Shown: positions 14,437-41,680, counted from the first letter of the stretch. The stretch is DNA of 64,000 nt from Cenarchaeum sp. (GCA_963693095.2 OY843768.1:1024001-1088000), one strand, 5' to 3'. Numbers and translations: made by a program. The notes: generated by a model from the letters alone, not told the origin.

Positions 14437-15456
14437 TCACCCAACCCTGCGTATCCTCTCAGAGCGCTGACCGGGAACGTCAATCACGTACCTTCCGTCG
14501 CCGAGCTGCTCAAACCACTCATAGAGAACCTGCACGTTTCCCGTGAGATCCCGCCGGCTCGGAACCGGCACGTCAGTGCAGTTGTCCTGTATCCACTCCT
14601 TTACACGTCCAAAGTACGTCTCTGGGTCTATGAATGAGTCCATCTGTTGCACAAACGGGTGCGCAAAGAATCGTGATGCCAGCTGTGCGCGAAACTCTGC
14701 CTCTGACAGACCCAGCTCTATACCATAGTTTGCCAGGTCATGGAACACACATGCTGCCACCTCGTCATCATCAGACGGCTCTAGTCCCTGCCCCATTCTC
14801 GCGTATCCGGACACGAGGTCATCAACGCTCCTAGTCATCGGCAGTGCCGATACCAGAAACTTGTCTGGCTGCATTCTCACAAGCGAGTCAAGCTCATCCT
14901 CTGTCTTTGGTGGCTGCGGCTGTTTCCTAATCCATGCAGAAAGCTTGTCATACATTTCATCATCCACAAGCCGTGATTCGCAACGTATGCGCTCAAAGTA
15001 CACACGGTCATCCGGTGAGGCCTCTTTTACAAGCACGCCCATCTCATGGTTGCCGCCCTCGTGCATTCCCCTGCGCGACATGTTTCCCGTGCAGAGCACA
15101 TAGTGGCGCAGTCCGACCGAGACAACCTTTAGGTGGATTTTAGAGTTCACGTAGAGCCTGATGTCCTGCTCCTTGCAGTACGGATACAGGGACAGCTCGG
15201 ATGAGCCTGACACAAGATCCCTAGTGTCCCACGTCGTGATGATCACCACCTTGGAGTCGATGCCGTCTAGGAGCTCCCTGACCACGTCTGTCCGGATATA
15301 GGGGACGATGATGTGGATCGTCTCGCCGCTGCGCGAGTGCTCCTCAATATAGGCCCTGACGCGCGCATAGAGGGGGCTCTGAAACGTGGGCTGCTCGTCG
15401 GTCAATCCGGCGCGCACGCGCGGGGTTCCCGTATATGGATGGTTGGAAGAGGCCAC
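14437..15456 (-). CDS. Phospholipase D-family (restriction endonuclease-like) nuclease domain protein
   Basis: IIVPYI; IHLKVV...TGNMSRRG...NHE (HxK with degenerate D); true start may be downstream. Confidence 0.75.
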   Translation of the reverse strand: MASSNHPYTGTPRVRAGLTDEQPTFQSPLYARVRAYIEEHSRSGETIHIIVPYIRTDVVRELLDGIDSKVVIITTWDTRDLVSGSSELSLYPYCKEQDIRLYVNSKIHLKVVSVGLRHYVLCTGNMSRRGMHEGGNHEMGVLVKEASPDDRVYFERIRCESRLVDDEMYDKLSAWIRKQPQPPKTEDELDSLVRMQPDKFLVSALPMTRSVDDLVSGYARMGQGLEPSDDDEVAACVFHDLANYGIELGLSEAEFRAQLASRFFAHPFVQQMDSFIDPETYFGRVKEWIQDNCTDVPVPSRRDLTGNVQVLYEWFEQLGDGRYVIDVPGQRSERIRRVG

Positions 15457-15608
15457 AAGGCACAGAAACGATCAACAGAGAAATGTGGCGCAAGCGTGTA
15501 AACTGAGCACATCATTGAGATCTACTCCAATGAAAAGGTGCAAGTATGAGCATAACAAGCACGTAGTCAAGATGCTTGTTCAAACAACTAAACCACTTAA
15601 CTCACACA

Positions 15609-15961
15609 AGCGTTGTTTCATAACCTCTCCCGGGTATCATTCCCGCATGCTCCCCTGCCCGGCGTCCTTCGCACGAGGCACGCGGCAGTTTAACCAAGTC
15701 ACAAATGGATCGGCGCGTGCGATGGCTGGTGTCATGGACGCAAAGTACGTTGACAGAGAGAAGATGTTCGTCATTGGCTGGTACACTAGGGGCAAGCTAG
15801 TGCCTCGCGTCGTCCGCGTCCGCGCGCATGGCAAACATCCTGTCCCTGCCAACGTACTTTGCGTTCTCTGTGCCAGCCAACGCGATGTCAGCTCACGAGC
15901 CGAGCCATTTAGGGTTAAGTCGTGGACGTCACGTGCATAGACGCGGTTATGAGATAGGGCC
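15609..15961 (+). mobile_element. Second IS903-like remnant/MITE
   Basis: GCGTTGTTTCATAACC (15610-15625) is the exact reverse complement of 14338-14353; decayed right end GGTTATGAGATAGGGCC (15945-15961) matches 14338-14354 at 13/17. Confidence 0.55.
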
Positions 15962-16202
15962 ACAGATGCGGCAGGCTCATAACCATTACCAATCACAACA
16001 GATTTGTATCATGTAATACTAACGCAGTTCAAAAGATTTTAAAATAGTATTGTTATTCTACGTGTCATTCAAAACAAATCAAAAAAAGAGCGAACAGTAG
16101 AATTAAAAAACAAAAATTATTGCAGGAGTTTAGGTTTGAGGACATTAAAGAAGTTGATGAACAAATAATGAATAGACACATACAGAATAAAACTTCTATA
16201 AA

Positions 16203-18026
16203 TTATTTATCTAATTTCTTACGAATCGGATTTAAATCGATTTCTTTAGTGATTATATCTATAAGACGATTATGGCGTTTGAGTATTTCGTCGACATTCC
16301 AGATTGGAATTTCAGTTAATTCTTTTGTTATTTTATAAGTTGGTGATTTGCCATATACAATTTTTTTGTCTTCAAATGATTTTTTGCCAGCATCAACATT
16401 ATATTCATGAGCTAAAAGAGTTTGATTACCAATTAATCTATAATGCTTGGTATGAATAATATTAATAATTTGTTTAGGGGATTTGCCAGCAATTTCTTTG
16501 TTGTGGGTAAGAATATAGTCGTTCCAGAGATCATGATCTTTAGGCATTATATGTTCGACGGTTGTGCCAACACGACTTATTTTGTCAGACTTTTCGTATT
16601 CAACTTCCTCTAAGAGGACCTGAGCTTGACGGCCACGTGCAAAATCTTTAGTGTACAAAACACCTTTTATCGCTTCGTCATCAGGATATTCATTACCGAT
16701 TAATATCTTGTCAGAGATTATTTTACCCAATGAAACACCTTTATAAATATCACAAATAACACCATATAATTTACGTTCATAATTTTTGGTTTCAAATATA
16801 CGTGTTATAACCATAACCCTGACATGATACTTAAAACATAGCGTGACTAAATCTTCAAAGGTTTCATGATCTTTGCGCTTCCAATATTTTTCATAACCTG
16901 CCAAAAGGACAGGATACACATAGATGGCGCCCATATCGTTAATTTTTTTAAGATAGTAAATGGTGTTCGGGCTATTTTGAAAGTGAATCGGATCAGCTGT
17001 TCAAATTTTTTCAAATACCTTTGACCAGGACGATAATTCATCTATTATCGTATCAGGCATCATGCCAGAGTTTATCAATTTTTTGAACCCATTAGGGATT
17101 AGCTTGAGGTGCGGGACAGTTTTGGGACGATATTTATTTAAAAGTAGGTAATGGTTTAGAAATTTGTCAAGCTTGTAATTAGAGCCATTATAACTAGTCA
17201 CATTGTCAACTATGCCCTTCCATTCACGATCATAACGCTTTGTAATCTTATCTCCATCTGTGTTTTGTTCTATCATGCTCAGCAGATATGCCTTAACATG
17301 ATCAGCCGGATTAAGTTTTATTCCACGGTTGTTGATTAATTCAAACATACGATATATGTCTGTATGGCGAGCATAAGAAATGTGATAAACGAAGAATTTA
17401 TTCAAGACATTATTAATATATTCATAGGCCTGATCAATGTCATGTTCGTCCTTATGAGGAAGTTTTGCCACATGGAGGCGAATTTTAGTATACGCAGATA
17501 TTAGCCTCATGTTAGATTTGTTGCTATACTTTGGCTTGAGATCAGTTGCGGTATGTCCAACATTACGTTTAGGTCTAGGTTCTGGTTCAAAAGGAATAGA
17601 TATGAGCATCTCGTGAAAAAGATCTTTGTCGGTTTGGCTCAGAGTCAAGATAGGGGCAGAGCCGTTAATAGTCGATTTGTCGTCAATATGCAAGATTCGA
17701 CTAAGAGTTTTCAAATATTTTTGAGCGTTATTGTATTTTTTATGTTTATCAAAAAAGTTTCTGGCACAGATCAGCAATAATAACGCAGTGGTTAGGCGTT
17801 GTTGACCATCAATTATCGTGGTAGGTTGAGCAGAGTCGTTGTTTGTGGTGATAATCAGTCCGAATGGATGTTCTTCATCATTGCGAACTTTATCCAAATC
17901 ATCAAGAAAGTCAGCCACATGTTTTGGTTTCCATGAATAGCCACGTTGCTGGGAGGGGATGACATAGTGTGTGTTAGATCTAAGCACTTTTTTCAAGGGT
18001 TGCTTGTCCACAAGAAAACGACTCAC
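16203..18026 (-). pseudogene. DUF262 + DUF1524 (HNH) protein, SspE/GmrSD-like, interrupted by one in-frame TGA at 17001-17003
   Basis: YVIP.QQRGYSW, IIDGQQRLTT, FELINNRG (DUF262); TVEHIMPK and IGNQTLL...N (HNH); the two ORFs share a frame and the 22 codons between them are sense. Confidence 0.85.
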
Positions 18027-18404
18027 TAGCCAGTAATTAAACTTAATCTGCTGCCTAGCCAGGCAGAGGAGTGCAGGCCAATAGCTCGATAGGCGGAAAT
18101 CTGACTAGACGCGATCTAGTAGCGGAACACACCGATGGGAAATTCTAGCACCACATCAGGCAATATGAAGGGCAGGTTACAGAAAAGGCCATGTAGTCAA
18201 TATCCGTCATGAGGCTAGATGACATGGGGTAAACAGAACAAAATCAGCCACATGGTATGGCAAGTGCTCCAATCAGCTCATTTGGCTGGCATAGGAGGCA
18301 TCACTGGCCACAGTCTGAGACCTTCCGGCCGCAGATCAACCCCCCGGCACGCACTGTGGGTGAAAACAACATCAATAATGGGTTGATCGCAGGCACAACC
18401 AAAT

Positions 18405-18453
18405 TGATTTAAACTCCCACCCCCTCGTGGGGGCATGGCAGGCCAGGAGTTGA
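18405..18453 (+). promoter_or_regulatory. Putative TATA box (TTTAAA 18408-18413) and RBS-like GGAG upstream of the ssp-like operon
   Basis: TGATTTAAAC ~45 nt before ATG 18458; GGAGTTGA 5 nt before the start. Confidence 0.45.
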
Positions 18454-18457
18454 TCGC

Positions 18458-19297
18458 ATGACGCGCCACGTGTGCGGCATATCGGGCGGCAAGGACTCTA
18501 GCGCGCTGGCCGTCTACATGAGGGACAAGGTTCCGGACATGGAATACTTCTTTTGTGACACGGGGGCCGAGCTTCCCGAGACGTATGCGTACATCAACAA
18601 GCTAGAGGTCGTCCTCGGCAAAAAGATTGCCCGCCTCAACTCTAGCCGCGGGTTTGACCACTATTTCGAGGTCTTCAAGGGATGCCTGCCGTCCCCGCAG
18701 ATGAGGTGGTGCACAAAGCTCCTAAAGATAAAGCCGCTCGAGGAGTGGCTCGGCGATGACGAGTCCGTCTCATATGTCGCCATACGCGCCGACGAAAAGA
18801 ACCGCAAGGGGCACGTGTCATCTAGACCCAACATAACTACCCAGTACCCGTTCATCGACGATGACATTGACCTCGATGGCGTGAACCGCATACTCGAGGA
18901 GGCCGGCATTGGCCTGCCCGACTATTACAAGTGGCGCACGCGCTCGGGCTGCTACTTTTGCTTTTTCCAGCGCAAGGCTGAATGGGTCGGCCTGCAGCAA
19001 CACCACCCAGAGCTCTTCAAGCAGGCAGTCGCAATCGAGAACAAGGTCCTAAAGGACGCAGGCGCCAATGGTGATGCGTCATTTGCCGATCACGCAATGG
19101 AGGGCAGGCAGTACACGTGGTCGCAGGGAGAGACACTCATACAGCTAGTCAGCCGAAAGGACCAGATACTAGAGAACCACAAGGCCGCAATGGAGCGCTC
19201 CAAGGGAAAAAGGAAAAACCTGCCGCTAGTGGACGTCTTAGGCGGAGCGCTAGACGACGAGGAGGACACAAAGGCATGCACAATGTGCCATCTATAG
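18458..19297 (+). CDS. sspD: PAPS-reductase-family protein, SspD-like
   Basis: PP-loop SGGKDS, DTG.ELPETY, PS...RWCT, RSGCYFCFFQ...EW, C-terminal CxxC; context with desulfurase, DUF4007 and ATPase. Confidence 0.85.
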   Translation: MTRHVCGISGGKDSSALAVYMRDKVPDMEYFFCDTGAELPETYAYINKLEVVLGKKIARLNSSRGFDHYFEVFKGCLPSPQMRWCTKLLKIKPLEEWLGDDESVSYVAIRADEKNRKGHVSSRPNITTQYPFIDDDIDLDGVNRILEEAGIGLPDYYKWRTRSGCYFCFFQRKAEWVGLQQHHPELFKQAVAIENKVLKDAGANGDASFADHAMEGRQYTWSQGETLIQLVSRKDQILENHKAAMERSKGKRKNLPLVDVLGGALDDEEDTKACTMCHL

Positions 19298-19336
19298 TGT
19301 GGTCAACGACCCACCTGCGTTCAAGCGGAGGGCGAC

Positions 19337-20563
19337 ATGGAAGATAACAACGGTCGTGCTGGCACACACGGTTCGGGCAATGTCACGTACATGGACTATA
19401 ACTCTACTACTCCCGTGGATCCACGCGTCATTAGGGAGATGGAGCCGCTGTTCAGCACATGGTATGGCAACCCGTCAAGTGAGTATCACCGATATGGCCG
19501 GGACGCAGTGGCTAGGGCAGAGCGCGCACGCGCGCAAGTTGCCGAGCTTGTCGGCATGGGTTCACCCGATGTCATATTCACGTCAGGCGCCACAGAGGCC
19601 AACAACCTTGCGCTTCGGGGAATGGCCGAGGGGGCCGGAAGGCGCATTCGCATACTAGTCGGCGCCGCAGAGCACAAGTCCGTCCTAGAGGCAGCCGATG
19701 GCCTAGCCGAGCTCGGCCTAGCCACCACAGGCAGCGTGCCGGTGGGCAGTGACGGCGTCACTGACTGCGACGCCCTAGCCAACGCGCTCTCCGGGGACAA
19801 GGTCGACCTAGTCTCGATCATGGGAGCCAACAGCGAGACAGGCGTCGTGCAGCCGATCGGGCAGATCGCCGAGATTGTCCACGCGGCAGGCGCGATATAC
19901 CACTGCGACATGACTCAGGGGGTCGGCCGCATCCCCTTTGGCGCCTCTGGGCTAGGCGTTGACATGGTCTCGCTGAGCAGCCACAAGTTATACGGGCCCA
20001 AGGGGTGCGGCGCGCTCGTGGCGAGCAGGGAAGTGCGCAAGAGGCTGCGCGCAACGATGCGCGGTGGCGGCCAGGAAAACGACCTGCGCAGCGGAACGCT
20101 CAACGTGCCCGGCATCGTGGGGTTTGGCAAGGCATGCGAGATCGCCTCCAAGGACGGGCTTGCCGATGCCCCCCGGCAGCAGGCGCTCAGGGACGCACTA
20201 GAGGAGAGGCTCACGTCCAGGATTTCCGGGACGAGCGTGAACGGTGCTGATGCCCCACGCCTGCCCAACACGTCAAACGTGAGGTTTGAGGGCGTGTCTG
20301 CGATGGCAATGATCGCAAACGTGCCGTCACTGGCAATCTCGTCCGGAAGCGCGTGCTCGGCGTCCACGGTCTCCCCCTCGCACGTTCTGCTGGCCATGGG
20401 AATGGGCGACGAGGCGGCCGACGAGTCGCTCAGGTTCTCCATTGGCCGTCCGACAGTGGAGGCTGACATTGACGCCGCAATAGGCCAGGTTGTCGCCGCA
20501 GTCGAGCGCATAAGGGGCATGACAGAGAATGCCATGACAGTGGGTGAAGGACATGCACATTGA
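19337..20563 (+). CDS. sspA: Group I cysteine desulfurase, SspA/DndA/IscS-like
   Basis: YMDYNSTTP, GNPSS, FTSGATEANN, SSHK (PLP Lys), SSGSAC (catalytic Cys). Confidence 0.88.
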   Translation: MEDNNGRAGTHGSGNVTYMDYNSTTPVDPRVIREMEPLFSTWYGNPSSEYHRYGRDAVARAERARAQVAELVGMGSPDVIFTSGATEANNLALRGMAEGAGRRIRILVGAAEHKSVLEAADGLAELGLATTGSVPVGSDGVTDCDALANALSGDKVDLVSIMGANSETGVVQPIGQIAEIVHAAGAIYHCDMTQGVGRIPFGASGLGVDMVSLSSHKLYGPKGCGALVASREVRKRLRATMRGGGQENDLRSGTLNVPGIVGFGKACEIASKDGLADAPRQQALRDALEERLTSRISGTSVNGADAPRLPNTSNVRFEGVSAMAMIANVPSLAISSGSACSASTVSPSHVLLAMGMGDEAADESLRFSIGRPTVEADIDAAIGQVVAAVERIRGMTENAMTVGEGHAH

Positions 20564-21551
20564 GCAGGCGGTTCCAAATCCGGGGTTTGCGCGGCACGAG
20601 ACGTTTCACCTCCGCTTTGGGTGGCTCAAGAAATGCTATGACGGGACGAGTCAGGACGAGCGCGTGTTCCAGAGTGAGGACGCCCTAGTCAGGCTAGGCG
20701 TCGGAAAGAACATGGTTCGCGCCATTCGCTTTTGGGGCATCGCCGCAAAGATCATACGGCAAAAGGTCGAGCCCGGCGAGGAGAGCAGGCGCGGGAGCCA
20801 GGAGGTCGAGGTCACCGAGATGGGACGCAGGATATTTGACGGCAAGACCGGCCTGGATCCGTACCTCGAGCGCCCCGAGACGCTGTGGCTGCTCCACTGG
20901 CTAATCTACGCCCCGCCGTCGTCAATCCCCGCATGGTGGGTGATCATGAACGACCTAAGTGCGGTGAGGGTGCCTGTGGGCGAGCTTCCCGGATATGTGC
21001 GCGGCAAGGTGAGCACCGTGGACACGTGGGCAATACCCAACGAAACCTCGATCAAAAAGGACACGGACGCGTTTGTGCACACGTACGCCTCAAAACGCGA
21101 CAATATCGGGGACATGGAGGATTACATGGACTGCCCGTTTCGCGCGTTGCGCATAGTAAAGGCCGACACTTCGGCAAAGTCCACCATACAGTTCTCCATC
21201 GGCATAAAGCCTGGCATGAGCGCAGACATTGTTGCATATATCTGCCTAGACTTTTTGAATCGTCTTAGAACGGAGAGCCGAACCGTGTCGGTGAACTATT
21301 TGACAACCGAGCCTGGGGGGCCTGGTCACGTGCTAAAGCTTGATGAGCCAAGCCTCACAAAACTGCTGACCGAGGCGTCTAAAGTCAGTGGACGATCCAT
21401 CAAGGTGTACGATGTCAACGGCGTCGCACACATATCATTCCCAAAAGACATAATGAAAGAGGCCACGCAGATACTAGAGCAGATATACGCCACAGACAAG
21501 ACACGGGTTCGGCGCAAGGCACCCAAGGTCGTGATGAGGGCACGCAAATGA
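20544..21551 (+). CDS. sspB: DUF4007 family protein, SspB-like
   Basis: FARHETFHLRFGWLKK, LGVGKNMVRAIRFW, DPYLE...TLWLLHW signature. Confidence 0.88.
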   Translation: MKDMHIEQAVPNPGFARHETFHLRFGWLKKCYDGTSQDERVFQSEDALVRLGVGKNMVRAIRFWGIAAKIIRQKVEPGEESRRGSQEVEVTEMGRRIFDGKTGLDPYLERPETLWLLHWLIYAPPSSIPAWWVIMNDLSAVRVPVGELPGYVRGKVSTVDTWAIPNETSIKKDTDAFVHTYASKRDNIGDMEDYMDCPFRALRIVKADTSAKSTIQFSIGIKPGMSADIVAYICLDFLNRLRTESRTVSVNYLTTEPGGPGHVLKLDEPSLTKLLTEASKVSGRSIKVYDVNGVAHISFPKDIMKEATQILEQIYATDKTRVRRKAPKVVMRARK

Positions 21552-24500
21552 CACGCGAACGGCCACCAATGGCAAAAGTATCCAAAAAGGCAAAGGTCAA
21601 GACAAAGGGCAGACAAGGCACGGTGAAAAAGCCAGTTCAGCGAAGCGAACCGTTGACTAGGCTAGTCACGCCTGTTGACTCGTTTGTGCGCTCGACGAAC
21701 ATAGAGAGAGACAGGGCAGGATCAGAGTCCCTTGGGACATACATTGCAGACGCCTCAGTCCTAGACACGGTTCATCGGGTGTCTGCCTCCATGGAGTCAG
21801 GCGGAAGGGCATTTTCCGTGACAGGCCCGTACGGGTCTGGCAAGTCAACACTAGCCGTGTTTCTCAACGGCCTAGTCGCCCCGTCAGCCGATCCTGACTG
21901 GAAGTATGCGCATCGCCTGCTGCAGGGCATCGCGCCTGCCATGTCCAGGCAGATCGTCGCCGGACGCAAGCACCTCAAGGCTCACAGGGGCGGGTTTGTC
22001 AGGTGCTTTGTGGTGTCAAGCCGCGAGCCGGTGGTCGTGACCGTCGTGAGGGCACTAGAGCACGGAGTAAAGGAGCACTTTGGCCCAAAATACTCCAACA
22101 GGGACTTTGCCACGGCTAGCCAGCTGCGGCGCGTGTGTGACGATATACGCCGGACGGGCAAGGCAGGGCTGTCAGGCACGTCCCACGCAGGCGCAGTCAT
22201 GGAGATAATCAGGGACATATGCGCCAAGACGCCCATCATGATCGTGATTGACGAGTTTGGCAAAAACCTCGAATACTTTGCAGAGAGCAAGTCCGGAGAC
22301 GGCGACCTGTTCCTCCTGCAGACCATGGCCGAGGCCGGTGCCGGAAAGAATGGCATTGCGCTGTTTATGATCACCATGCAGCACATGGCATTTGAGGAGT
22401 ATGGTGTGGGAATATCGGCTGCGCACAGGAGGGAGTGGGCAAAGGTGCAGGGGAGGTTTGATGACATTCCATTCTCAAACTCGGCAGGGCAGACAAGGCT
22501 CCTAGTTGGCAAAGCACTCCGTGTCACCAATAATCTAAAGCGTCAAAGGACAGTAGGAAAATGGGCAAGAGATCACAGAAGGGTATTGCATAACCTAGGC
22601 TTAGACAGAGATCTTAGTGAAGAGGTGTTAACATCATGCTACCCACTCCACCCGCTAGCCCTGCTCGTTCTGCCAGAGCTGTGCGCCAGGTACGGGCAAC
22701 ATGAGCGAACCCTAATGTCATTTGTCGCCGGAAGTGGAAAGAATGCAGTTCCCGCATTCATAGACAATGAAACTTGGTCAGGAAACAAACTCCCTTCCAT
22801 GGACATAGAGTCCCTGTATGACTATTTTGTGTCTAGCCACCAGTCGACCAGTTCAGCGTCTGCGGCAAACGTGACGCGTCTCATGGAGATCACATCAATA
22901 ATACGTGACTCGTATGGACTTTCCAGGCAGGCGATAAAGACGCTCAAGACGATCGGGGTGCTAAACCTAATCTCGACATCAGGTCCCCTGCGTGCCTCCA
23001 AGGGCGTCATAGAGTATGCCATTGGCACGCATATTGAGGAGGCCATCGAAGAGCTAGAGGCAGGGTCGCTCATAACATATCGTCCATACGCAGACGAGTA
23101 CAGGATATGGCGCGGAACTGACGTGGACATACAGGCCTCAATAGATGTTCTATCCAAGCACTATTCCGGCGTGCCCCTAGCCCACACGCTAGAGCGTATA
23201 GCGCCGCTAGACCCCGTCATAGCCGCACGGCATGGAATCCGAACAGGGACGATGAGAATGTTTGAAAGGAGGTTTTTTGGGCAAAAGGAGGGCGAGGTTG
23301 ACGTGTCGAGGCAGGACTATGACGGCATTGTCCTGTACTCTACAGAAAAGGATGGCAGTCTGCCAAGGATCAGCACCGGCACAAAACCGGTAATTCTCGT
23401 AAGGCCCGCATCTAGCACACACGAGATAAGCGGAGTTGCGCTAGAGACTGCCTCCATAATGGAGATGCTTGAGTCTGATGAATCCATAAAGGGCGACTGG
23501 GTGGCAAGACGCGAGCTTTGGAGTCGCATGAGCCATGGCATTACCACAATCGAGTCCTGGCTTGAGCACGCATACGGAAACGATGCAGAGTGGTGGCTGT
23601 ATAACGGGACAAAACCCCACAGGATTGACGAGGCAGGCGGGGCAGCAGTGTCATCTGCAGCAGACATTGCGTATCCAGGAACACCGTACATTCACAATGA
23701 GATGATCAACCGCACAAAGCTGTCCATGCAGGCATCACGCGCCCGCCTCATGCTAATCAACGCGATGATCAGAGACCACACAAAGAAAAACCTTGGGATA
23801 GAAGGATGGGGGCCGGAACGCGCAATGTACGAAGCCGTGTTAAAAAAGACTGGACTGCACAAGCGCAATGGCAAAGTATGGAAGATTGCAGCGCCAACGC
23901 AAGATATACTAGCCGCATGGGAGTCAGTAAGCAAGTCAATTGAGCGTTCACAAAAACATCGCGTGAATGTGGGAGAAGTATATGCGGCATTGCAAACACC
24001 TCCCATAGGTGGAAAAGGCGGCATGGCACCCGTTCTCCTGTCAGCTGCGCTAATCATCAAGAGTGGAGACGTGGCGCTATACGAACACGGGACATACTGT
24101 CCAAACATTGCACCAGAAGTGGTGGAACGACTGCTAAAGAACCCCACACATTTTGAGATAAAGCACTTTGCTAGCAAGACAAAACTCAAAGCAAATGTGA
24201 TCCAAAACGTTGGCAAAGAACTAGGAATAAAAAATCCAAGCCTGCTGGGAATAGTAAGCTCGCTCGTAAAGACTCTGAGTGGGTTGCCAAAATACACAAA
24301 GACAACAAAAATGCTCGAAAAGCACGACCTGATGGTCAGAAACGCAATACTCACGGCCACAGAGCCCGACGTTATGCTGTTTGAAGCGCTCCCCAAGGCA
24401 CTAGGACTAGGACTAGAACTGTCAGGGAGATCAGCCTCAAATAGAGTCGTTAGCGAGTTTGCGCACAACCTAGCTATGTCAATCAAGTCAATAGAGCTGT

Positions 24501-25030
24501 TTTATCCGCGCACGCTAAAAATGCTGCAGAGTAGCCTGCTCAAGGCAACACAGACAAAAGAACGACAGCGCCTAGAGGCCATAGCAGCATCGCTATCGAA
24601 AAGGACAACTGCTGCAGATCCCAAAATGCGAACATTCCTGAACGCCATAACAACAAGCACTCTAGAGACTGAAGACTGGATCGAGTATGTAGCAATGATT
24701 ATGACGGATGCTCCAATGAGTGAATGGAATGACGACATGTACGAGTTATTCCATGCCAATTTACAAGAGATAGCAGGCAGGTTTTCGCGCCTAGTCGCCC
24801 TAAACTTTGAAAAGACGTCAAAACACATGAGCACAGATCCATCATTGTACAGAGTCACGGTTACAAACCAAGACGGAACGGAAAATACCAACATAGCGTC
24901 AATAAACAAGCGACAGGAAAAGAACGTAAATGAGATCGTTGAACGTATGATCGACGTAATCCAAAAAAACAGAGGAGAACGTCCACAGATCGTTTTAGCA
25001 TTAATTGCGTCATTAGCGAAGAAGTTATAA
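21548..25030 (+). CDS. sspC: Large P-loop ATPase, SspC-like (1160 aa)
   Basis: F.RS.NIERD, Walker A GPYGSGKS, Walker B IDEFGK.LE, EW.KVQGRF, YPLHP, YGQ.ERTL.SF; ATGA-coupled to the DUF4007 gene. Confidence 0.85.
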   Translation: MTRERPPMAKVSKKAKVKTKGRQGTVKKPVQRSEPLTRLVTPVDSFVRSTNIERDRAGSESLGTYIADASVLDTVHRVSASMESGGRAFSVTGPYGSGKSTLAVFLNGLVAPSADPDWKYAHRLLQGIAPAMSRQIVAGRKHLKAHRGGFVRCFVVSSREPVVVTVVRALEHGVKEHFGPKYSNRDFATASQLRRVCDDIRRTGKAGLSGTSHAGAVMEIIRDICAKTPIMIVIDEFGKNLEYFAESKSGDGDLFLLQTMAEAGAGKNGIALFMITMQHMAFEEYGVGISAAHRREWAKVQGRFDDIPFSNSAGQTRLLVGKALRVTNNLKRQRTVGKWARDHRRVLHNLGLDRDLSEEVLTSCYPLHPLALLVLPELCARYGQHERTLMSFVAGSGKNAVPAFIDNETWSGNKLPSMDIESLYDYFVSSHQSTSSASAANVTRLMEITSIIRDSYGLSRQAIKTLKTIGVLNLISTSGPLRASKGVIEYAIGTHIEEAIEELEAGSLITYRPYADEYRIWRGTDVDIQASIDVLSKHYSGVPLAHTLERIAPLDPVIAARHGIRTGTMRMFERRFFGQKEGEVDVSRQDYDGIVLYSTEKDGSLPRISTGTKPVILVRPASSTHEISGVALETASIMEMLESDESIKGDWVARRELWSRMSHGITTIESWLEHAYGNDAEWWLYNGTKPHRIDEAGGAAVSSAADIAYPGTPYIHNEMINRTKLSMQASRARLMLINAMIRDHTKKNLGIEGWGPERAMYEAVLKKTGLHKRNGKVWKIAAPTQDILAAWESVSKSIERSQKHRVNVGEVYAALQTPPIGGKGGMAPVLLSAALIIKSGDVALYEHGTYCPNIAPEVVERLLKNPTHFEIKHFASKTKLKANVIQNVGKELGIKNPSLLGIVSSLVKTLSGLPKYTKTTKMLEKHDLMVRNAILTATEPDVMLFEALPKALGLGLELSGRSASNRVVSEFAHNLAMSIKSIELFYPRTLKMLQSSLLKATQTKERQRLEAIAASLSKRTTAADPKMRTFLNAITTSTLETEDWIEYVAMIMTDAPMSEWNDDMYELFHANLQEIAGRFSRLVALNFEKTSKHMSTDPSLYRVTVTNQDGTENTNIASINKRQEKNVNEIVERMIDVIQKNRGERPQIVLALIASLAKKL

Positions 25031-25070
25031 CTACGTCACTAGATATAGACTGTGCGCGGCACCAACATGA

Positions 25071-26693
25071 TCAAGTGTCCCAGTAGGCTGAAAAATATTC
25101 ATACACATCGTCCAATCCACCATATTCAGTAATGATATTGTCCACAACGTCAATAAGCTGAAATTCTTCTGTCCCGCCTAGTTCTAATCCTCGCATACCT
25201 CTTCCAATCATTTGGCCATAAACCACCACAGATGTAGTTGGTCTAGCAATAACCACAGCATCGATATTTGGAGCGTCAAAACCAGTGGTGAATATATCAT
25301 AATTAAATATGAATTGAATGTCCCCATTTTTAAATTTGTTGATCACATCGTGTCTGTAGTTATGTGGCGTACTACCATCAACATGAATAGCGGATTTTCC
25401 CAGAGCAATCAATAATCCGCACAAGAGTTTTGATTGGCGGACACTTGCATTGAAAACGATTATGTGTTTGCAAGATTCAGATAGCTCCAGTAATTTTTGG
25501 ACAATTTTTAAATTACGTGGCACGTCATCAGCGATTTTTTTTAGTACTGAATCTGGATATTCATGATTAAAACTTTTTTGAATTTGATTCCATTCATCTT
25601 TAGTTAAATAAAATTTACGTTTTGTTTGTAATGGTTTTCGTATACACCTAGAAAGAATATTTTTATCTTGGAGATAAGAAATTGGACTTTGAACACCAGA
25701 GTCAATTGTGATGATTTGATTATCAAAAAAATCAGCCAGCTTGTCTGAATGTTTTGTTCGCCCAGGGGTTGCAGAAAGACCAATAATCTTAGTTTGTTTA
25801 TAAAATATATCACAAAGGGCTTTTATAATTTTTTGGTAAGTTGGTGCCAAAGCATTGTGTGCTTCGTCAGCAACTATTAGATCAGCTTTTAATGATAGTT
25901 GTTCGTTAAAAAGTGGATTACGAATTTTTTGATACATGGCGATAATTAATTGTGAGTGATCAAAGTCGAGATCAGGGATAGGGTGTTTCCCCCAAAGTCT
26001 AGAAATAGTGAGATCGCACTTAGCAACATGAGGCCAGATTGCAAGAAACGTATCGTATGCTTGTTCGCACAGTTCAGAGCGGTCGGCAAGCCAAACAACA
26101 GTTCTAGATTTGTTTGAATTTAAAAATGATGATACGATCTCCATGGCTACCCTAGTCTTACCTGATCCAGTGGGCATTTGAACAACAATTTTTGAATTTG
26201 GGTATTCAGCGTACTGCCGAGCTTTAAAATATACATAAGCCTGGTAATCTTTTAGAGTAGTATAGGTATGAATTGATTTAGGTATGAAATTTGCAGCTGG
26301 CACAGGTTTAACGCTATGTGGAATTAAATAATCAGGATATTGAAAGGCACTTACAAATGATTTAGTTATATCGTTATTAGACCAAACAAACCTAGATGAA
26401 CGTTTTCGAAATTCAACATCATCAATATCGGCATTGGTGTACGATATGTTTGATTTTTGTACAAAATCCAAAAATTGTGAAGAGGGAGCATATTTGAGCA
26501 AATTAGAACGAAACTGATGATTTGAATATTGATCAATATTCAGTGCGTGGTGTAATTGTCCAAGAAGATCTTTATCGTGCCGAAGCGGCAAATCAATGTC
26601 AGGGTCAATTGATTTTAATAGCAACTCCCATGAATCAATAAAAGGATCAAGGTTTTCATATAGTTGATCAAATGGGAGGTGTTGATTCAGCAT
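25071..26693 (-). CDS. Superfamily 2 DEAH helicase (ResIII-like), 540 aa
   Basis: LKDYQ, MPTGSGKT, DEAH, SATPGR, TGFDAP, QMIGRGMRG. Confidence 0.92.
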   Translation of the reverse strand: MLNQHLPFDQLYENLDPFIDSWELLLKSIDPDIDLPLRHDKDLLGQLHHALNIDQYSNHQFRSNLLKYAPSSQFLDFVQKSNISYTNADIDDVEFRKRSSRFVWSNNDITKSFVSAFQYPDYLIPHSVKPVPAANFIPKSIHTYTTLKDYQAYVYFKARQYAEYPNSKIVVQMPTGSGKTRVAMEIVSSFLNSNKSRTVVWLADRSELCEQAYDTFLAIWPHVAKCDLTISRLWGKHPIPDLDFDHSQLIIAMYQKIRNPLFNEQLSLKADLIVADEAHNALAPTYQKIIKALCDIFYKQTKIIGLSATPGRTKHSDKLADFFDNQIITIDSGVQSPISYLQDKNILSRCIRKPLQTKRKFYLTKDEWNQIQKSFNHEYPDSVLKKIADDVPRNLKIVQKLLELSESCKHIIVFNASVRQSKLLCGLLIALGKSAIHVDGSTPHNYRHDVINKFKNGDIQFIFNYDIFTTGFDAPNIDAVVIARPTTSVVVYGQMIGRGMRGLELGGTEEFQLIDVVDNIITEYGGLDDVYEYFSAYWDT

Positions 26694-28357
26694 TATTCTG
26701 GATCTTTATCAGTAGCGCCCTCAATTTTTTCATAAAGATAAAACGTCCAATTACGCATCAATCTCTTAATCACCTCGGCATTTTGTTGTTGGTCCGCATT
26801 GAATTCACGCCGAGCAATCGCAAAAGTGCCCAACGCAACATAAACGGAGTTTTTTATGTGCTTAAGTGCAAGTATTTGAGATTTGTCAAGATTAGGCGAT
26901 ATTGTGTCTAGTTTATTAAATGAATCAAAGAATAATTTCCAAAATGGGTGAAGCATGTTGAGTTGGAGTAATGTCCTATTACCTTCAGACACGATATCAA
27001 CGAACGGGCCAGCTGATCCTAAATTATAATTTTCATGAATCACATATGGTTTATCTGTTAGTTGCTGAAACAAAACGTCATTTTGAGCTTGGTTTTCTAC
27101 TCCCGCAGCTTTGAGAATGCTTGCAACCTCCTGATCATCTGGAGGAAGAGGATCACTTTGACCTTGCAGCCACTGTTCGGCCAATTCCGGAGATGCGGTA
27201 TTACCAATAACCTCTTGTTTTTTAGTTTTTTGATCTTCGCGAACTTTACGTATTAGCTTACGATAATCATAGATAGTACTGTTAACATGTTTTTGGATTA
27301 TTTCACGCATTTCAGGCAAAGGACGGGCACCAACTTTAATGGTCTTGACTTTAAACCAGCGATCAAGATCAGCATTAAAGGATATTTCACAACCCCAAAA
27401 TCGGTCAATTTCACGAGAATCCCCTTCATCCAGACTATAATGAGGTATTTTTCCAAACATCACCTCACGATCGTTGCGAAGTATGGAGAAACTAGTGGAC
27501 GTAACAAGCTGACGATCCTTATTTGCGATAGTGCCTCCCGAACCCTCTTTTTCCCACCAGGATTGGGGCAGTAACGATAATCGGATTGTGATAGGACTAG
27601 TGCCATGTTGCTTATCAGGAGGAGGATCATAAGTGTGGATTTTCATCGGAATGCTAATTTCTCCAGCAAGCTTTGAGACTTCATCGCCATATTTGGTTTG
27701 AGTTGCGTATAAAGGATCCAATGCAGGGATTTCTTTCCCATCAAGAAAAATATGGCGTTGGTTAGGATTTTGAACCACTTTGGAATTTGAGATTGTCTGT
27801 TTGCCGATAAATTTACGATAAGTTCTGCCTATCCATTTGATCAAGTCGTCAGAACGCGCATCTGCCATGTCAAGCTTTTTCCAGATCACAAGAGTGCCAC
27901 TATTCGCAATTAAATCAGAATAGTCTTCAGGAATGTTTTTTCTTATAGGAGGGGGGATTTTAGAACCAATTTCAAGAAAAGTGTAATACCATTCACCGCC
28001 TTTGGTTTTTGAGTACACCTCAATATGGCGACATTGGCTAATCGCACCAAGAATCATCCCCACGCCAAATCTTCCAATGCCTGATCTGTCATTATACCTA
28101 GACGAATATCCGAGAACCAAACATTTATGTAATGTGTCGGGATTCATGCCAATACCGTCATCTCCAAAAGCCATTTCAACAAATCTGTAATGTGGTTTAC
28201 GGGTTTCAACCTTTTGGGTCATGATCCTGATGTTGGTTGCCTCAGCCTGTATAGAGTTGTCTATGACTTCCCCGATGGCCGAGACTGTATCAAAATCCGA
28301 ATGTCGCATAGATTCAAGAGCTTGTTTGTCGTCAACTGGGCTTATAGGCGTGTCCAC
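26693..28357 (-). CDS. GHKL/MORC-family ATPase, 554 aa
   Basis: EVIDNSIQA, DDGIGM, GRFGVGM, GTLVIW; TAATG overlap with the helicase. Confidence 0.88.
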   Translation of the reverse strand: MDTPISPVDDKQALESMRHSDFDTVSAIGEVIDNSIQAEATNIRIMTQKVETRKPHYRFVEMAFGDDGIGMNPDTLHKCLVLGYSSRYNDRSGIGRFGVGMILGAISQCRHIEVYSKTKGGEWYYTFLEIGSKIPPPIRKNIPEDYSDLIANSGTLVIWKKLDMADARSDDLIKWIGRTYRKFIGKQTISNSKVVQNPNQRHIFLDGKEIPALDPLYATQTKYGDEVSKLAGEISIPMKIHTYDPPPDKQHGTSPITIRLSLLPQSWWEKEGSGGTIANKDRQLVTSTSFSILRNDREVMFGKIPHYSLDEGDSREIDRFWGCEISFNADLDRWFKVKTIKVGARPLPEMREIIQKHVNSTIYDYRKLIRKVREDQKTKKQEVIGNTASPELAEQWLQGQSDPLPPDDQEVASILKAAGVENQAQNDVLFQQLTDKPYVIHENYNLGSAGPFVDIVSEGNRTLLQLNMLHPFWKLFFDSFNKLDTISPNLDKSQILALKHIKNSVYVALGTFAIARREFNADQQQNAEVIKRLMRNWTFYLYEKIEGATDKDPE

Positions 28358-28597
28358 GGATCAGAACACCGGGGACTACATAATAAACATATCTCAAAAC
28401 ATGGACTTCAATTACGCATGAAATTAGAGCTCACGCTAGCGAGTACACATGATGATGCGTAGGCCAAGGCTCCCAGGTGCCAGAGGCACCACGTGGCGCG
28501 CACATAGGTAGCAGGCACTCCCAGGCCGCATCTTGGCTACCACGTATTTAAAAACCCGAAATAACGCTTATACGATCAACAGCCCGCTCCAAGTCCA

Positions 28598-29245
28598 ATG
28601 TCAGGACAAGAGCACGCCACGCCATGCCCTACTTGCGGGAGCACCAGGGCCGCAGCGGAAGCCGACAGGGTGCCAAAAAAGGAGATCAGCGCGTATGAAG
28701 GCCGGATGAATCGGCTCAGGCTAGAGGCCGAGGGCGGACCACTCGCCCCCATACCAGGATCCGCAGTCCCCATATTCCATGTCCTCTGCGACGCCGGCGT
28801 GGTTGACTGCGGCATGTCTCCGAGCAATGGAAGCGTCGCGGAGCGCCTGGCACTGAACATACTGGTATACTTTGCAAAGCACAGGTTTGGGTGTCCCGGA
28901 CTGGAGAGGTTTGACTACGAGTGGAGCATATCAAGTCCCCACTCGATCAAGCTCGAGGTCGACCTTGATGACATTACTGATCTCCATTCAGAGCCGGCCC
29001 AAGAGTGGGACAGAAAGGACGAGTTTGTCAAGTTTGCGCAAAAGCACGGCAACGACGCCGAATGGCTCCAGATTGCCTCGACGATATGCCACATAGATGA
29101 CGAGATGATGAAGGATTCCGTGACGCTCACGCGAGATGAGATGATCGACGAGGCGCGCCAGTGGTACATATTCAATTCCAAGGCAGTGCCAGGGGTGTAT
29201 GACGATATTGTCGACATGCTAGCAAGGACACGGGGCGACGCGTAG
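28598..29245 (+). CDS. Hypothetical protein, distant SocA/DUF4065/YwgA-like, paralogue 1
   Basis: N-terminal CPTCG; LVYF...F...F.YEW...SP.S..L..DL and WLQIAST patterns. Confidence 0.6.
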   Translation: MSGQEHATPCPTCGSTRAAAEADRVPKKEISAYEGRMNRLRLEAEGGPLAPIPGSAVPIFHVLCDAGVVDCGMSPSNGSVAERLALNILVYFAKHRFGCPGLERFDYEWSISSPHSIKLEVDLDDITDLHSEPAQEWDRKDEFVKFAQKHGNDAEWLQIASTICHIDDEMMKDSVTLTRDEMIDEARQWYIFNSKAVPGVYDDIVDMLARTRGDA

Positions 29246-29344
29246 CCCAAGGCGCCGGACACTGCATAAGTGCCACATGAAGCGCACATTAGGCAGCAAG
29301 AGTCCATAAACCGTGCTACGCCTACCGCGTATTTAAAAACCCGA

Positions 29345-30436
29345 TGTATTGTACAAAAAGTAGGAGCGGGGGCCAGAGGGCTTGCCGGGCGCGGATCCGG
29401 GAGCCCGCGGAGGGCCTTCGGGTCCGGCAGGCTGCCGAAACACACGTTTGGGGGCCTCCGGCGCCGGCGCGCCATGCCGGTCAGGAGGCTGGACGCGCGG
29501 GCGCTCCGGTACATCGCGAGGACGCTTGCGACCAGGAGCACCGGGGCAGTGGCGCGCGAGCTGGGGATCTCGCCGTCGTGGGCCCGCAAGCTCCGCGCGC
29601 ACTGCCGGCGGACCGGCGCGCCGCCGGAGCCGCGGCCGATGGGGAGGCCGCGCAGGCCGATCACGCGGGAGCAGGCCGACGAGGTCCTCGCCGCGCACTC
29701 GCGCGACCCCGTCGGCGTGGTGCACCTGGTCAGGCTCATGCGGCTCAACAACTCAAAAATAGCGTACGGCGCGGCGTACCGCATATTGTCTGCGGAGGGA
29801 CTGGTCAGCAGCTCGCCGGCGAGGTCGAGGAGGCGCAAGTGGGTGAGGTTCGAGAGAAAGTACTCCAACGCGATGTGGCACGTGGACTGGCACATAATGA
29901 AATACGGCCCCCTGAGGGGCTCGCACCTCATAGTGTTCCTCGACGACGCGTCGAGGTGCGTGACGGGGTTCGGTGTCTTCCCCGAGGCCACGTCGGGCAA
30001 CACTGTGCTCGTGCTGCACCACGCGATCGGGAGGTTCGGCAAGCCGGCGCAGGTGCTCTCGGACCACGGGACGCAGTTCACGGCGAGCCGGCGCGGCGCC
30101 CCGCGCCGCAGCTGGAAGCCGACGCTCTTCGAGCGGGAGCTGCTCGACGCCGGGATAAAGCACGTCATGGCGCGCGTCGGCCACCCCCAGACCAACGGCA
30201 AGGTCGAGAGGTTCTTCCGGACGCTCGAGACGGAGATCGACCGCCATGGCGGGGTCGCCGAGTTCATCGGGCACTACAACGAGGAGAGGCTCCACTTCTC
30301 CCTCGACATGGAGACCGGCGAGACGCCCCTGCTGGCCTTCAGGAGGCGGAGGGCCGACGGGCGGGTCCGGGCGGAGAACCCAGGGTGGATGGAGGTGGAC
30401 TCGGATGGGTAGCGCTCCTACTTTCCGTATAATACA
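29345..30436 (+). mobile_element. Intact IS481-family insertion sequence (1092 bp) with 15-bp target-site duplication
   Basis: TGT...ACA termini; ~24-bp imperfect IRs TGTATTGTACAAAAAGTAGGAGCG / CGCTCCTACTTTCCGTATAATACA; TATTTAAAAACCCGA at 29330-29344 and 30437-30451. Confidence 0.93.
29474..30412 (+). CDS. IS481-family DDE transposase
   Basis: N-terminal HTH; WHVD, LDDASR, SDHGTQF, HPQTNGKVERF, YNEERLH. Confidence 0.93.
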   Translation: MPVRRLDARALRYIARTLATRSTGAVARELGISPSWARKLRAHCRRTGAPPEPRPMGRPRRPITREQADEVLAAHSRDPVGVVHLVRLMRLNNSKIAYGAAYRILSAEGLVSSSPARSRRRKWVRFERKYSNAMWHVDWHIMKYGPLRGSHLIVFLDDASRCVTGFGVFPEATSGNTVLVLHHAIGRFGKPAQVLSDHGTQFTASRRGAPRRSWKPTLFERELLDAGIKHVMARVGHPQTNGKVERFFRTLETEIDRHGGVAEFIGHYNEERLHFSLDMETGETPLLAFRRRRADGRVRAENPGWMEVDSDG

Positions 30437-40154: not shown

Positions 40155-41609
40155 CTAGTACAGGTAGCTCATGAGGCGGATCTGCTCCTCGGTCGTGATG
40201 ACGTCCTTTGCCTTTAGGGTGTCGAGGAGATCCTTAAAGATCGCCTTTTGGTCCTCTGACATTGAGCCAGACGTGCCCTTGTCACCGGGCGGGCCGGGCG
40301 GGCCAGGCGGTCCGGGTGGGCCGACCCCGCCCTGTCCGCCACGCGGTCCGGGCTCTCCGGCCGGACCGGCCGAACCCACCGGACCGCGCGCGCCCTGTGG
40401 GCCCTGGATTCCCTGCGGGCCGTGCATGCCCTTGTCACCGGGCGGGCCCGGCGGGCCGCGCTCGCCTTGCGGTCCCTGTGATCCTTGCGGACCCTTGTCG
40501 CCCGGCGAGCCCTGCATTCCGGGCTGGCCCTTCTCGCCGGACGGGCCGGCCGGACCCTTTTCTCCAATCTCACCTTGCGGTCCGGGAATTCCGGTCAGGC
40601 CCTTCTGTCCCATCTCGCCTTGTGGGCCGGCCGGACCCTTGTCACCTGGCGTTCCCTGTGGACCGTCCTCGCCCTTGTCGCCGGGCGGACCCGGTGGGCC
40701 TGTCGTCCCCTTGTCGCCGTGCGGACCCGGCGGACCCTTGTCGCCGTGCGGACCCGGCGGACCCTGCAGGCCCTTGTCACCAGACGGGCCGCGTGATCCC
40801 GTCTCCCCCTTTGCACCGTGCGCACCGCGCTCTCCGGTGATTCCCTTGTCGCCAATTGATCCCTGTGGGCCCTTGTCGCCCTTTGAGCCGACCTGACCCC
40901 GCGGACCCTGCGGTCCCCTTTCGCCCGGTGAGCCTGTCGGGCCTGTCGTGCCCTTGTCGCCCGGTGGACCCGGTGGACCCTTGTCGCCCTTGTCACCCTT
41001 GTCGCCGGTGAGACCCTTTGGACCGGACTGGCCCTTCTCGCCGGGCGGACCGGACACGCCGCGCGATCCCGGCGGACCCTGCGTTCCGGTCGGTCCGGCG
41101 CTGCCGCGCTCGCCGGGCGGACCCTGCGGGCCGCGCTGGCCCTTGTCACCCAGTGGACCCTGCGCGCCGCGCGTGCCCTGCTTTGCGCGCGGTTCATCAT
41201 GGCGAGGCCGCCTCTGCGTGTCGCGTTGACGCGGGGCATCCTGATGACTGCCTGGAACGGCTGCCTCAAAGACTGTGTGCTCACCAGAAAAGACGTCATT
41301 TACGACAACCCAGACCGAACCTAGCTCAAACACAGAGTCTGGAATCGGCCGTTGGCCCTCGCCTCCCAGCGAGACGGCAAACTCGCCATCCTTTACCCTT
41401 AGGTGGAACTCGGAGGTCCAGAGGGCATCAAATGACCTCGAGGAGGCCGATGCGGCATCTGGCCTCTGGCCTGCAAGCGATATGGCAGCCTCAAACACGC
41501 CCGAGCCGGTAAACGGTGAGCGTCCCCCCACGTCCAGCGTCCTGATCCGGTCCGGCATGGATCGCAGCTCAAGTGCCAAGTATTTTTGTATTTTGACATA
41601 TATGGGCAT
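40155..41609 (-). CDS. Collagen-like protein (long Gly-X-Y run, SHOCT-like C-terminus)
   Basis: About 100 consecutive GXY triplets (~40265-41180); C-terminal [15 protein letters not shown]. Confidence 0.9.
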
Positions 41610-41680
41610 GGGGGCGCGGCGCGCAGGCGTGGGGGGCCGGCGATGCCTAGAATGGTATTTATCTAGAAACAGCGCCACCG

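Follow-up and report, generated by a model that had tools for sequence, protein, structure and literature searches.

We analysed a 64,000-nucleotide stretch of the genome of Cenarchaeum sp. (GCA_963693095.2, OY843768.1:1024001-1088000; G000:C1:1024001-1088000 in our genome set), referred to here as the window, with positions counted from its first nucleotide. Between 14.4 and 30.4 kb, the window contains a defence island of ~16 kb, whose core is, by homology, a genuine SspABCD phosphorothioate (PT) writer encoded by sspD, sspA, sspB and sspC (18458-25030). On balance, we favor the explanation that SspABCD writes PT, that its likeliest restriction partner is a trio of genes encoding a helicase, a MORC-like GHKL ATPase and a phospholipase D (PLD)-family nuclease with winged-helix domains, and that the island is a mosaic. 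Judged from its genes and their neighbors, the trio is probably an undescribed phosphorothioate-linked restriction module. A first, sequence-only reading of this DNA described the ssp genes and overlooked both the trio beside them and a Dnd-Pbe locus elsewhere in the genome.

The SspABCD writer and its archaeal host

The four ssp genes are co-oriented on the plus strand and closely spaced or overlapping. Their open reading frames (ORFs) coincide exactly with those first proposed, with 39 nt between sspD and sspA, 20 nt shared by sspA and sspB, and 4 nt shared by sspB and sspC. sspD (18458..19297; 279 amino acids, aa) encodes a PP-loop ATP pyrophosphatase of the PAPS-reductase family (Pfam PF01507, PAPS_reduct, E 2.5e-11; PADLOC SspD, 2.8e-107, model 1-276 of 277), with the PP-loop SGGKDS at residues 9-14 and CxxC pairs at 165/168 and 274/277. 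sspA (19337..20563; 408 aa), which starts 39 nt past sspD and overlaps sspB, encodes a pyridoxal phosphate (PLP)-dependent cysteine desulfurase (Pfam Aminotran_5, 1.4e-71; PADLOC SspA, 9.3e-127; DndA, 1.7e-124) with the motifs SSHK (Lys217) and SSGSAC (Cys340). sspB (20544..21551; 335 aa), the sole DUF4007 gene of the genome, encodes a DNA-binding protein/nickase (DUF4007, 1.5e-75; PADLOC SspB, 2.6e-84) that matches the solved SspB structures 6juf (7.3e-44 over residues 3-321) and 6lb9. sspC (21548..25030; 1160 aa) encodes a large ATPase related to BrxC, in which Walker A (GPYGSGKS at 93) and Walker B (MIVIDE at 231) are invariant in five thaumarchaeal homologs. The PP-loop, PLP lysine, catalytic cysteine and both Walker motifs can all be read from the sequence, bearing out the earlier description of intact catalytic motifs. 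PADLOC searches with hidden Markov models (HMMs) matched SspA, SspB, SspC and SspD each. The proposal of a complete SspABCD module in a thaumarchaeon thus holds, with four full-length family matches (PADLOC E 3e-107 to 7e-302, in addition to the SspB value above), all of them well outside what chance would give.

The homology of SspC to BrxC (PADLOC, 8.5e-94, 313 bits) and a weak match of SspD to BrxP (2.6e-11) would also fit a BREX type 4 cluster. We regard this as extremely improbable. The SspC model scores 1002 bits (7e-302, model 2-1103 of 1104), and SspB and SspD are separate genes, as in Ssp. The sequence-only reading would have given way to BREX if the ATPase had grouped with BrxC and a pglZ or brxL gene had been linked to it; PglZ (PF08665) has no match anywhere in the 99.55%-complete genome, in a search whose control was positive in 2 of 14 genomes and which did not include BrxL. 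Since the genome lacks PglZ, the cluster is not BREX type 4.

The same reading held that the archaeon sulfur-modifies one DNA strand using a dedicated desulfurase. As SspA is one of five full-length class-V aminotransferases of the genome and is encoded inside the ssp operon, "dedicated desulfurase" is reasonable. The single-strand part of the claim is carried by homology, by which these genes would place sulfur in one strand. The writer is an ordinary member of the SspABCD family; it is the host that is unusual.

The host genome comprises 2.0 Mb in two contigs, is 99.55% complete and has a GC content of 60.4%. It contains an archaeal small-subunit (SSU) rRNA match (1457.6 bits) and encodes an archaeal AmoA (E 3e-117), and the sequences nearest to its SspC belong to records whose titles name Cenarchaeum sp., Nitrosopumilus sp. 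or Nitrosopumilaceae. The host is therefore a thaumarchaeon (Nitrososphaerota), and the island lies in the genome of an ammonia-oxidising archaeon.

A second PT system, a complete Dnd-Pbe cluster, is present at C1:1.594-1.608 Mb (locus L002, C1:1592000-1611999). Its genes are ordered dndB-C-D-E-A, a 286-aa ORF, PbeA (PADLOC, 2.9e-178; TIGR04095, 1e-115), PbeC and a 161-aa ORF, and a divergent full-length GmrSD/HEC-06 gene (1.6e-109) adjoins the cluster. Since the ssp genes and Dnd-Pbe reside in one genome, one archaeal cell carries both. Genes of the dnd type were reported earlier in sponge-associated and marine thaumarchaea (PMC6790972, PMC7848895).

To place the window among related loci, we used a pattern search with five thaumarchaeal SspC sequences and kept the best 80 of 453 candidates, 20 archaeal and 60 bacterial. 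The sequence-only reading gave the gene order as sspD-A-B-C. This order is not a defining trait: where sspD was matched, it lay downstream of sspC in 75 of 76, and the only locus with sspD upstream came from the same genus (L017). The D-first order of the window is a local rearrangement. Among the bacterial records, many are named after lineages associated with sponges, for example Ca. Poriferisocius and Ca. Spongiisociaceae. In an unrooted tree of 81 SspC rows (all trees were built with FastTree only), the 21 archaeal rows form one clan with 100% support, within which the window and L017 together are sister to the remaining 19. As the tree is unrooted and the loci are the best 80 of 453 candidates, it names no donor.

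A survey of 401 genomes sampled from the phylum detected DUF4007 in 7, each of which belongs to the window's family. Within that family, DUF4007 (SspB) scored above cut-off in 17 of 201 genomes, from six genera. The 201 genomes, which are also the denominator of the GHKL and PLD surveys below, include G462, a genome flagged as unpublished, which has a sub-threshold match only and supports no claim. The locus shows Ssp-type writers to be established among ammonia-oxidising archaea, where one cell can contain Dnd-Pbe as well.

An alternative is that the ssp genes were acquired recently or are decaying and that the organism makes no PT. Their mixed GC (0.51-0.63) is compatible with this, as is the sspD of the same-genus genome G036 (L012, 4475-5327), which was recovered by tblastn in two pieces (95.5% identity over 245 aa and 78% over 32 aa) and has a 253-aa ORF compared to 279 aa in the window; a frameshift may have removed its C-terminal CxxC. 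However, none of the four ORFs of the window is truncated and their catalytic motifs are invariant, and the single archaeal SspC clan, spanning six genera of the family, argues for long retention. We therefore consider this alternative very improbable.

A helicase, a GHKL ATPase and a PLD nuclease beside phosphorothioate genes

Downstream of sspC and on the opposite strand lies a two-gene operon, GHKL gene first and helicase gene second, in which the helicase gene overlaps the stop of the GHKL gene. The helicase (25071..26693, minus strand; 540 aa) belongs to superfamily 2 (SF2; ResIII/DEAD type) by its Pfam matches (ResIII, 3.9e-27; Helicase_C, 6.9e-16). Motifs Q, I (PTGxGKT), II (DEAH), III and VI are conserved in 13 homologs, and the N-terminal ~140 residues contain no recognised domain. 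The GHKL ATPase (26693..28357, minus strand; 554 aa) matches Pfam HATPase_c_3 (3.6e-19), and the motif residues E30/N34, D66-G68-G70, G95/G98/G100 and G154-T155, together with K341, are invariant in 13 homologs. Its AlphaFold 2 (AF2) model (predicted local distance difference test score, pLDDT, 66) matched the ATPase of human MORC4 best (7k7t, E 7e-13), followed by MORC2, MORC3, Hsp90/TRAP1 and GyrB.

The third gene of the trio (14437..15456, minus strand; 339 aa) encodes a predicted PLD-family nuclease (AF2 model, pLDDT 80.6), whose match to Pfam PLDc_2 (9.3e-4) is below cut-off. The protein has a single HxK motif (H108, K110) and GN at 124-125, invariant in 10 archaeal homologs. Residues 25-175 of the model resemble the nucleases SauUSI (7clg, Z 13.0), Nuc (1bys, Z 12.7) and BfiI (Z 11.4). 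The C-terminal residues 196-339, a predicted tandem winged-helix DNA-binding domain, resemble 3bhw (Z 8.4), N.BspD6I (Z 7.6), BrxA (Z 6.8), FokI (Z 6.4) and SspB (6juf, Z 5.8). Bacterial GHKL genes are followed, in the same orientation, by an ORF of ~310 aa, a homolog of the archaeal PLD protein across its two domains (hhalign 99%, E 7.5e-18, 268 columns). The PLD family is large, with 4,710 representatives at E <= 1e-3, 2,294 at <= 1e-10 and 911 at <= 1e-30. NCBIfam contains no trio-specific model: the helicase weakly matched RadD (3e-35) and TIGR04095 (2e-11), the GHKL protein matched MzaB (2e-14), and the PLD protein of the window matched 0 families. PADLOC likewise has no model specific to the trio.

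The association of the trio with PT writers was examined from both sides. We found the helicase/GHKL pair in 15 of the 20 archaeal and 11 of the 60 bacterial Ssp loci (best 80 of 453); of the five archaeal loci that lack it, three come from contigs no longer than 6.2 kb. Where a locus had both the pair and sspD, the two were within 400 nt of each other in 18 of 25 cases. Across the 201 family genomes, a full-length GHKL homolog (E <= 1e-70) was present in 15, and 13 of these are SspB-positive. The remaining two genomes, G403 and G132, have the trio immediately next to dndBCDEA or dndDEA. A PLD gene was detected in 19 of the 201 genomes, in most cases adjoining the pair; on this distribution, it does not qualify as a core gene that marks a hotspot of insertion.

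A reverse test in metagenomes, which started from the GHKL protein, gave 80 loci. The HMMs applied in this test, in G403 and G132 and on the plasmids below were built from the loci of the SspC pattern search. The pair was present in 30, and 27 of these 30 also had a PLD match. Genes for SspB, SspC or SspD were carried by all pair-bearing loci with >= 3 kb on both sides (8/8) and by 16 of the 17 with >= 3 kb on one side; two short contigs with the pair carry dnd genes instead. The remaining 50 loci contain lower-scoring GHKL proteins without a helicase, several of them in GHKL-GHKL pairs. Adjacent GHKL genes lacking helicase, PLD and ssp genes were seen at L146, L148, L160, L164, L166 and L173, and appear, from gene content, to be a different two-GHKL system recovered with the same patterns.

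On plasmids, all 12 records with a GHKL homolog (>= 86% coverage, >= 40% identity) carry ssp genes within 13 kb, nine of them with an SspC homolog at that distance and three with ssp genes recognised by annotation or HMMs. The trio is present on plasmids of Roseobacter, Aminobacter and Mesorhizobium. In some genomes, the trio is embedded in the ssp operon itself. The order in G036 and L017 is sspD, helicase, GHKL, sspA, sspB, sspC, and plasmid A of the cyanobacterium Trichormus variabilis ATCC 29413 encodes DUF4007, SspC, PAPS reductase, a 'DndB' protein, helicase, ATP-binding protein, phospholipase D family protein and cysteine desulfurase.

Several of these loci have further features. On the Trichormus plasmid (L177), a gene annotated as a 'DNA phosphorothioation-associated putative methyltransferase' (1-1766) is divergent beside the ssp-trio operon, and the 'DndB'-annotated protein between sspD and the helicase, at 768 aa, is SspE-like in size. 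On an Agrobacterium tumefaciens CFBP7129 plasmid (L178, 5705-20612), helicase and GHKL genes are accompanied by a gene for a 359-aa hypothetical protein that the PLD model did not detect, and the four genes directly downstream include one for a 1836-aa FtsK/SpoIIIE-domain protein; a PAPS-reductase gene adjoins. By domain content, this looks like a trio stacked with an SspFGH-like module. One metagenome-assembled genome labelled Nitrosopumilus contains two separate Ssp-plus-trio loci, L019 and L024. The L019 helicase is in two pieces ~1 kb apart (17244-18047 and 19072-19980), which suggests an insertion.

A tree of 51 GHKL rows resolves two deep clans that match gene order, one with the GHKL gene first (21 rows, including the window) and one with the helicase gene first (30 rows, including L017). 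Thaumarchaea are found in both.

The main alternative is that SspABCD is real but an 'orphan' writer, with epigenetic or redox roles, and that the helicase/GHKL pair, the PLD gene and a nearby GmrSD-like gene (described below) are independent defences sharing an island. Some 84% of 2,678 bacterial sspBCD clusters (83.9%; 2,211) were reported to have neither sspE nor sspFGH, and the authors think true orphans possible (PMC8092258). MORC/paraMORC modules with SFII helicases were predicted to be restriction-modification-like with no PT link made (PMC2292703). Moreover, the PLD gene of the window lies apart from the pair. From the side of the trio, however, the association with PT genes is near complete, holding for all 15 family genomes, all 8 metagenome contigs with ample flanks and all 12 plasmids, and the trio resides inside ssp operons of an archaeon and of a cyanobacterial plasmid. 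We judge the orphan alternative to be unlikely, while giving it more weight than any other alternative.

A number of further observations weigh against a partnership between the writer and the trio. Four of the 17 SspB-positive family genomes (G443, G453, G458 and G511) lack a full-length GHKL homolog, and the pair is missing from 49 of the 60 bacterial Ssp loci; therefore, Ssp does not need the pair. In the window, the trio is not contiguous, as the PLD gene is 10 kb from the pair, beyond the ssp genes. Since the pair is of a different subtype from that of the sister species (24-34% identity) and the PLD protein is 92% identical, the trio of the window may not be co-adapted. Defence genes cluster in islands anyway, so adjacency alone can mislead, and the kin genomes and metagenome contigs that we counted are non-independent samples. 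The GHKL model has low confidence past ~residue 210, and the winged-helix matches of the PLD tail (Z 5.8-8.4) are middling. Finally, the functions given to all parts, writer and trio alike, are predicted ones.

A mosaic island with exchanged cassettes

Our preferred explanation includes an island assembled from parts with different histories, and the GC content changes accordingly along its length. It is 0.56 in the PLD-like gene, 0.33-0.38 in a GmrSD-like insert, 0.57, 0.63, 0.57 and 0.51 in sspD, sspA, sspB and sspC, and 0.36 and 0.41 in the helicase and GHKL genes, and it returns to ~0.6 from about 28.5 kb. The same-genus genome G036 shares the flanks of the window (histidine kinase 94%, PLD gene 92%, homoserine dehydrogenase 99% identity) and has the order PLD (minus strand), sspD, helicase, GHKL, sspA, sspB, sspC. 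Compared with the window, its SspD is 95% identical, SspA 66%, SspB 69%, SspC 60%, the helicase 34% and the GHKL protein 29-30%. The site has thus been conserved and its cassettes swapped. On these comparisons, the island is a mosaic in which the PLD gene and sspD are sister-like, sspABC are diverged, the helicase/GHKL pair belongs to another, low-GC subtype, and the GmrSD-like gene is inserted.

The helicase and GHKL genes also have lower GC than the adjoining ssp genes at other loci. This was seen at four high-GC thaumarchaeal loci: the window (0.36/0.41), L017 (0.38/0.38), L022 (0.55/0.51) and L037 (0.50/0.48). The lower GC suggests repeated import from low-GC relatives.

Contigs from public sequencing runs were identical to the window (0 differences) over 15407-18535 (runs X1 and X2), 20397-28645 (X1) and 19093-28645 (X2), although X1 and X2 may themselves be the source of the assembly. 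In run X4, sspA-sspC was covered with 0 differences; no contig of that run extended over the GmrSD insert or the helicase/GHKL genes, which we do not take as absence. Contigs of X1, X2 and X4 also join 15436 to 18399 without the GmrSD insert. The summed depths of the insert-free and window forms were 679 versus 146 in X1 and 180 versus 67 in X2, and the insert-free form probably comes from a co-occurring relative.

The insert itself is a GmrSD-like type IV restriction gene (16203..18026, minus strand) with DUF262 and DUF1524 domains (Pfam GmrSD_N, 1.6e-33; GmrSD_C, 1e-14), recognised by Pfam and PADLOC. Its only stop is an in-frame TGA at 17001-17003, after residue 341 of the read-through translation. 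Because SspE has the same DUF262-DUF1524 domain pair, the gene lies directly upstream of sspD, and genes of the GmrSD kind are also present at 5 of 20 other archaeal Ssp loci, it could be the SspE-type PT-sensing nickase of the system. Several observations make this very improbable. PADLOC HEC-06 (6.6e-42) and Orf5 score far above SspE (9e-9, N-terminal part only), and HEC-06, the best-matching family, was reported as a stand-alone defence (bioRxiv 10.1101/2024.01.29.577857). In addition, the gene is interrupted by the TGA, forms a low-GC insert missing from co-occurring contigs and from the sister species' site, and has a full-length paralog beside the Dnd cluster. A search of the whole genome with the SspE model returned only partial, N-terminal matches to three DUF262 genes, leading us to reject a canonical SspE (~770 aa, DUF262-DUF1524) as well.

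At the right border of the island is an IS-type transposase gene with an rve integrase core (29270..30412, plus strand; Pfam rve, 1.3e-12; rve_3, 9.7e-11). No counterpart was found at the syntenic site in G036. In run X1, the summed contig depth over 28986-29500 was ~20 times that of neighboring genes and loose ends were numerous, a pattern expected of a multi-copy insertion sequence. The transposase may explain the inversion of the helicase/GHKL genes relative to the sister species.

A scan of the window found no tRNA and no Rfam family. Outside the island, collagen triple-helix repeats make up most of a 535-aa protein encoded at 40155-41762 on the minus strand (Pfam Collagen, 1.9e-50, six stretches; NCBIfam SclB-like, 9.5e-47).

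Known systems, a possible mechanism and its meaning

We compared the island to the closest known systems. The four writer proteins match those of SspABCD-SspE from Vibrio cyclitrophicus FF75 and E. coli 3234/A over their full length and share the logic of desulfurase, PP-loop enzyme, nickase and ATPase (PMC7188994). The island differs in its archaeal host, in having sspD first and in lacking a canonical SspE, the neighboring GmrSD-like gene being of the HEC-06 type and broken. As in SspABCD-SspFGH of Vibrio anguillarum FF-93, a multi-gene restriction module adjoins sspBCD. However, SspFGH contains a Walker A protein and an FtsK/SpoIIIE-like protein (PMC8092258), whereas the module here consists of an SF2 helicase, a GHKL ATPase and a PLD nuclease. 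A Pfam scan of 20 ORFs of the island, which used no SspF, SspG or SspH models, found no FtsK/SpoIIIE match.

DndCDEA-PbeABCD of Haloterrigena jeotgali likewise combines a PT writer with a ResIII/DEAD helicase, a PLD domain and a large ATPase that manipulates DNA (PMC6459918), and two family genomes pair the trio with Dnd. The differences are that PbeA is a PLD-helicase fusion and PLD and helicase are separate genes here, that PbeC is an SMC-like ABC ATPase compared with a MORC-like GHKL ATPase, and that the writer is Ssp. The helicase of the trio matched PADLOC PbeA (1.1e-21) over the helicase core only (model 260-436) and aligned with the helicase core of the PbeA encoded in the same genome (hhalign 98%, E 8e-14); the PLD profile gave no match to that PbeA (hhalign probability 0.04%). 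We rejected PbeABCD as an identity for genes of the window, as the helicase matches the PbeA core only and the window has no PbeC and no equivalents of PbeB or PbeD.

Prokaryotic MORC/paraMORC operons (Iyer, Abhiman and Aravind 2008; PMC2292703) encode a GHKL+S5 ATPase beside an SFII helicase and a nuclease, which in some cases is an HKD phosphoesterase. The genes described here fit such a module, with invariant GHKL motifs, MORC4, MORC2 and MORC3 among the top structural matches, an adjoining helicase and a linked PLD nuclease (27 of 30 metagenome modules). The operons of Iyer et al. were linked to DNA methylases, whereas the modification partner here is a PT writer; the words Dnd, PAPS and phosphorothio are absent from that paper.

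PLD nucleases also occur with SF2 helicases in SauUSI and in DISARM (DrmA/DrmC). SauUSI, a single polypeptide targeting modified cytosine, is the best structural match of the PLD domain, and DrmC gave weak matches. DISARM uses methylases and DrmB, and neither SauUSI nor DISARM has a GHKL ATPase or a PT writer. By domain content, the trio differs from SspE, SspFGH and PbeABCD. In a literature search conducted mostly at the level of titles and abstracts, with subscription papers and supplementary tables outside its scope, we found nothing that connects MORC, GHKL or PLD-helicase modules with Ssp or PT, and no description of Ssp in Nitrosopumilaceae or Thaumarchaeota; Table S2 of PMC8092258, with 2,678 sspBCD strains, may list archaeal hosts or such neighbors.

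A mechanism can be outlined from these likenesses. In the characterised systems, the PLP cysteine desulfurase SspA binds the ATP pyrophosphatase SspD, and SspB acts as a nickase (PMC7188994); the product is a single-strand PT at C-ps-CA (PMC9646914). By analogy with these homologs, SspA would draw sulfur from cysteine and pass it to the PP-loop enzyme SspD, SspB would bind one DNA strand and nick it at a short motif, and SspC would drive scanning through its ATPase. The outcome would be a backbone sulfur in one strand.

In the trio, the PLD nuclease would dimerise, because it has a single HKD motif, a feature that makes dimerisation necessary in Nuc and BfiI. Its winged helices would read the DNA. 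The helicase would translocate along the DNA, and the MORC-like GHKL ATPase would clamp or loop it, an activity proposed for prokaryotic MORCs (PMC2292703). How the mark is used could follow either of two patterns. The trio might nick or block DNA that lacks the host PT mark, as DndFGH and SspFGH do, or host PT might license its activity, as for SspE and PbeABCD (PMC8092258, PMC6459918).

We also put forward, with about even confidence, a broader proposal. The trio would be an undescribed PT-dependent restriction module of Archaea and Bacteria that uses either writer, mostly Ssp and in some genomes Dnd; it would explain part of the ~84% of sspBCD clusters regarded as 'orphan', and thaumarchaea would swap its two subtypes as cassettes at one chromosomal site.

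PT is, to our knowledge, the only known natural modification of the DNA backbone. The restriction partners of most Ssp writers are unassigned, and the trio, with its MORC-type ATPase, is a conserved candidate for this role that may represent an unrecognised, virus-restricting partner of PT genes. As the trio is found inside an ssp operon on a plasmid of a culturable cyanobacterium, the idea is directly testable. If true, it would provide a setting among prokaryotes for the reading of an epigenetic backbone mark by a MORC-like ATPase.

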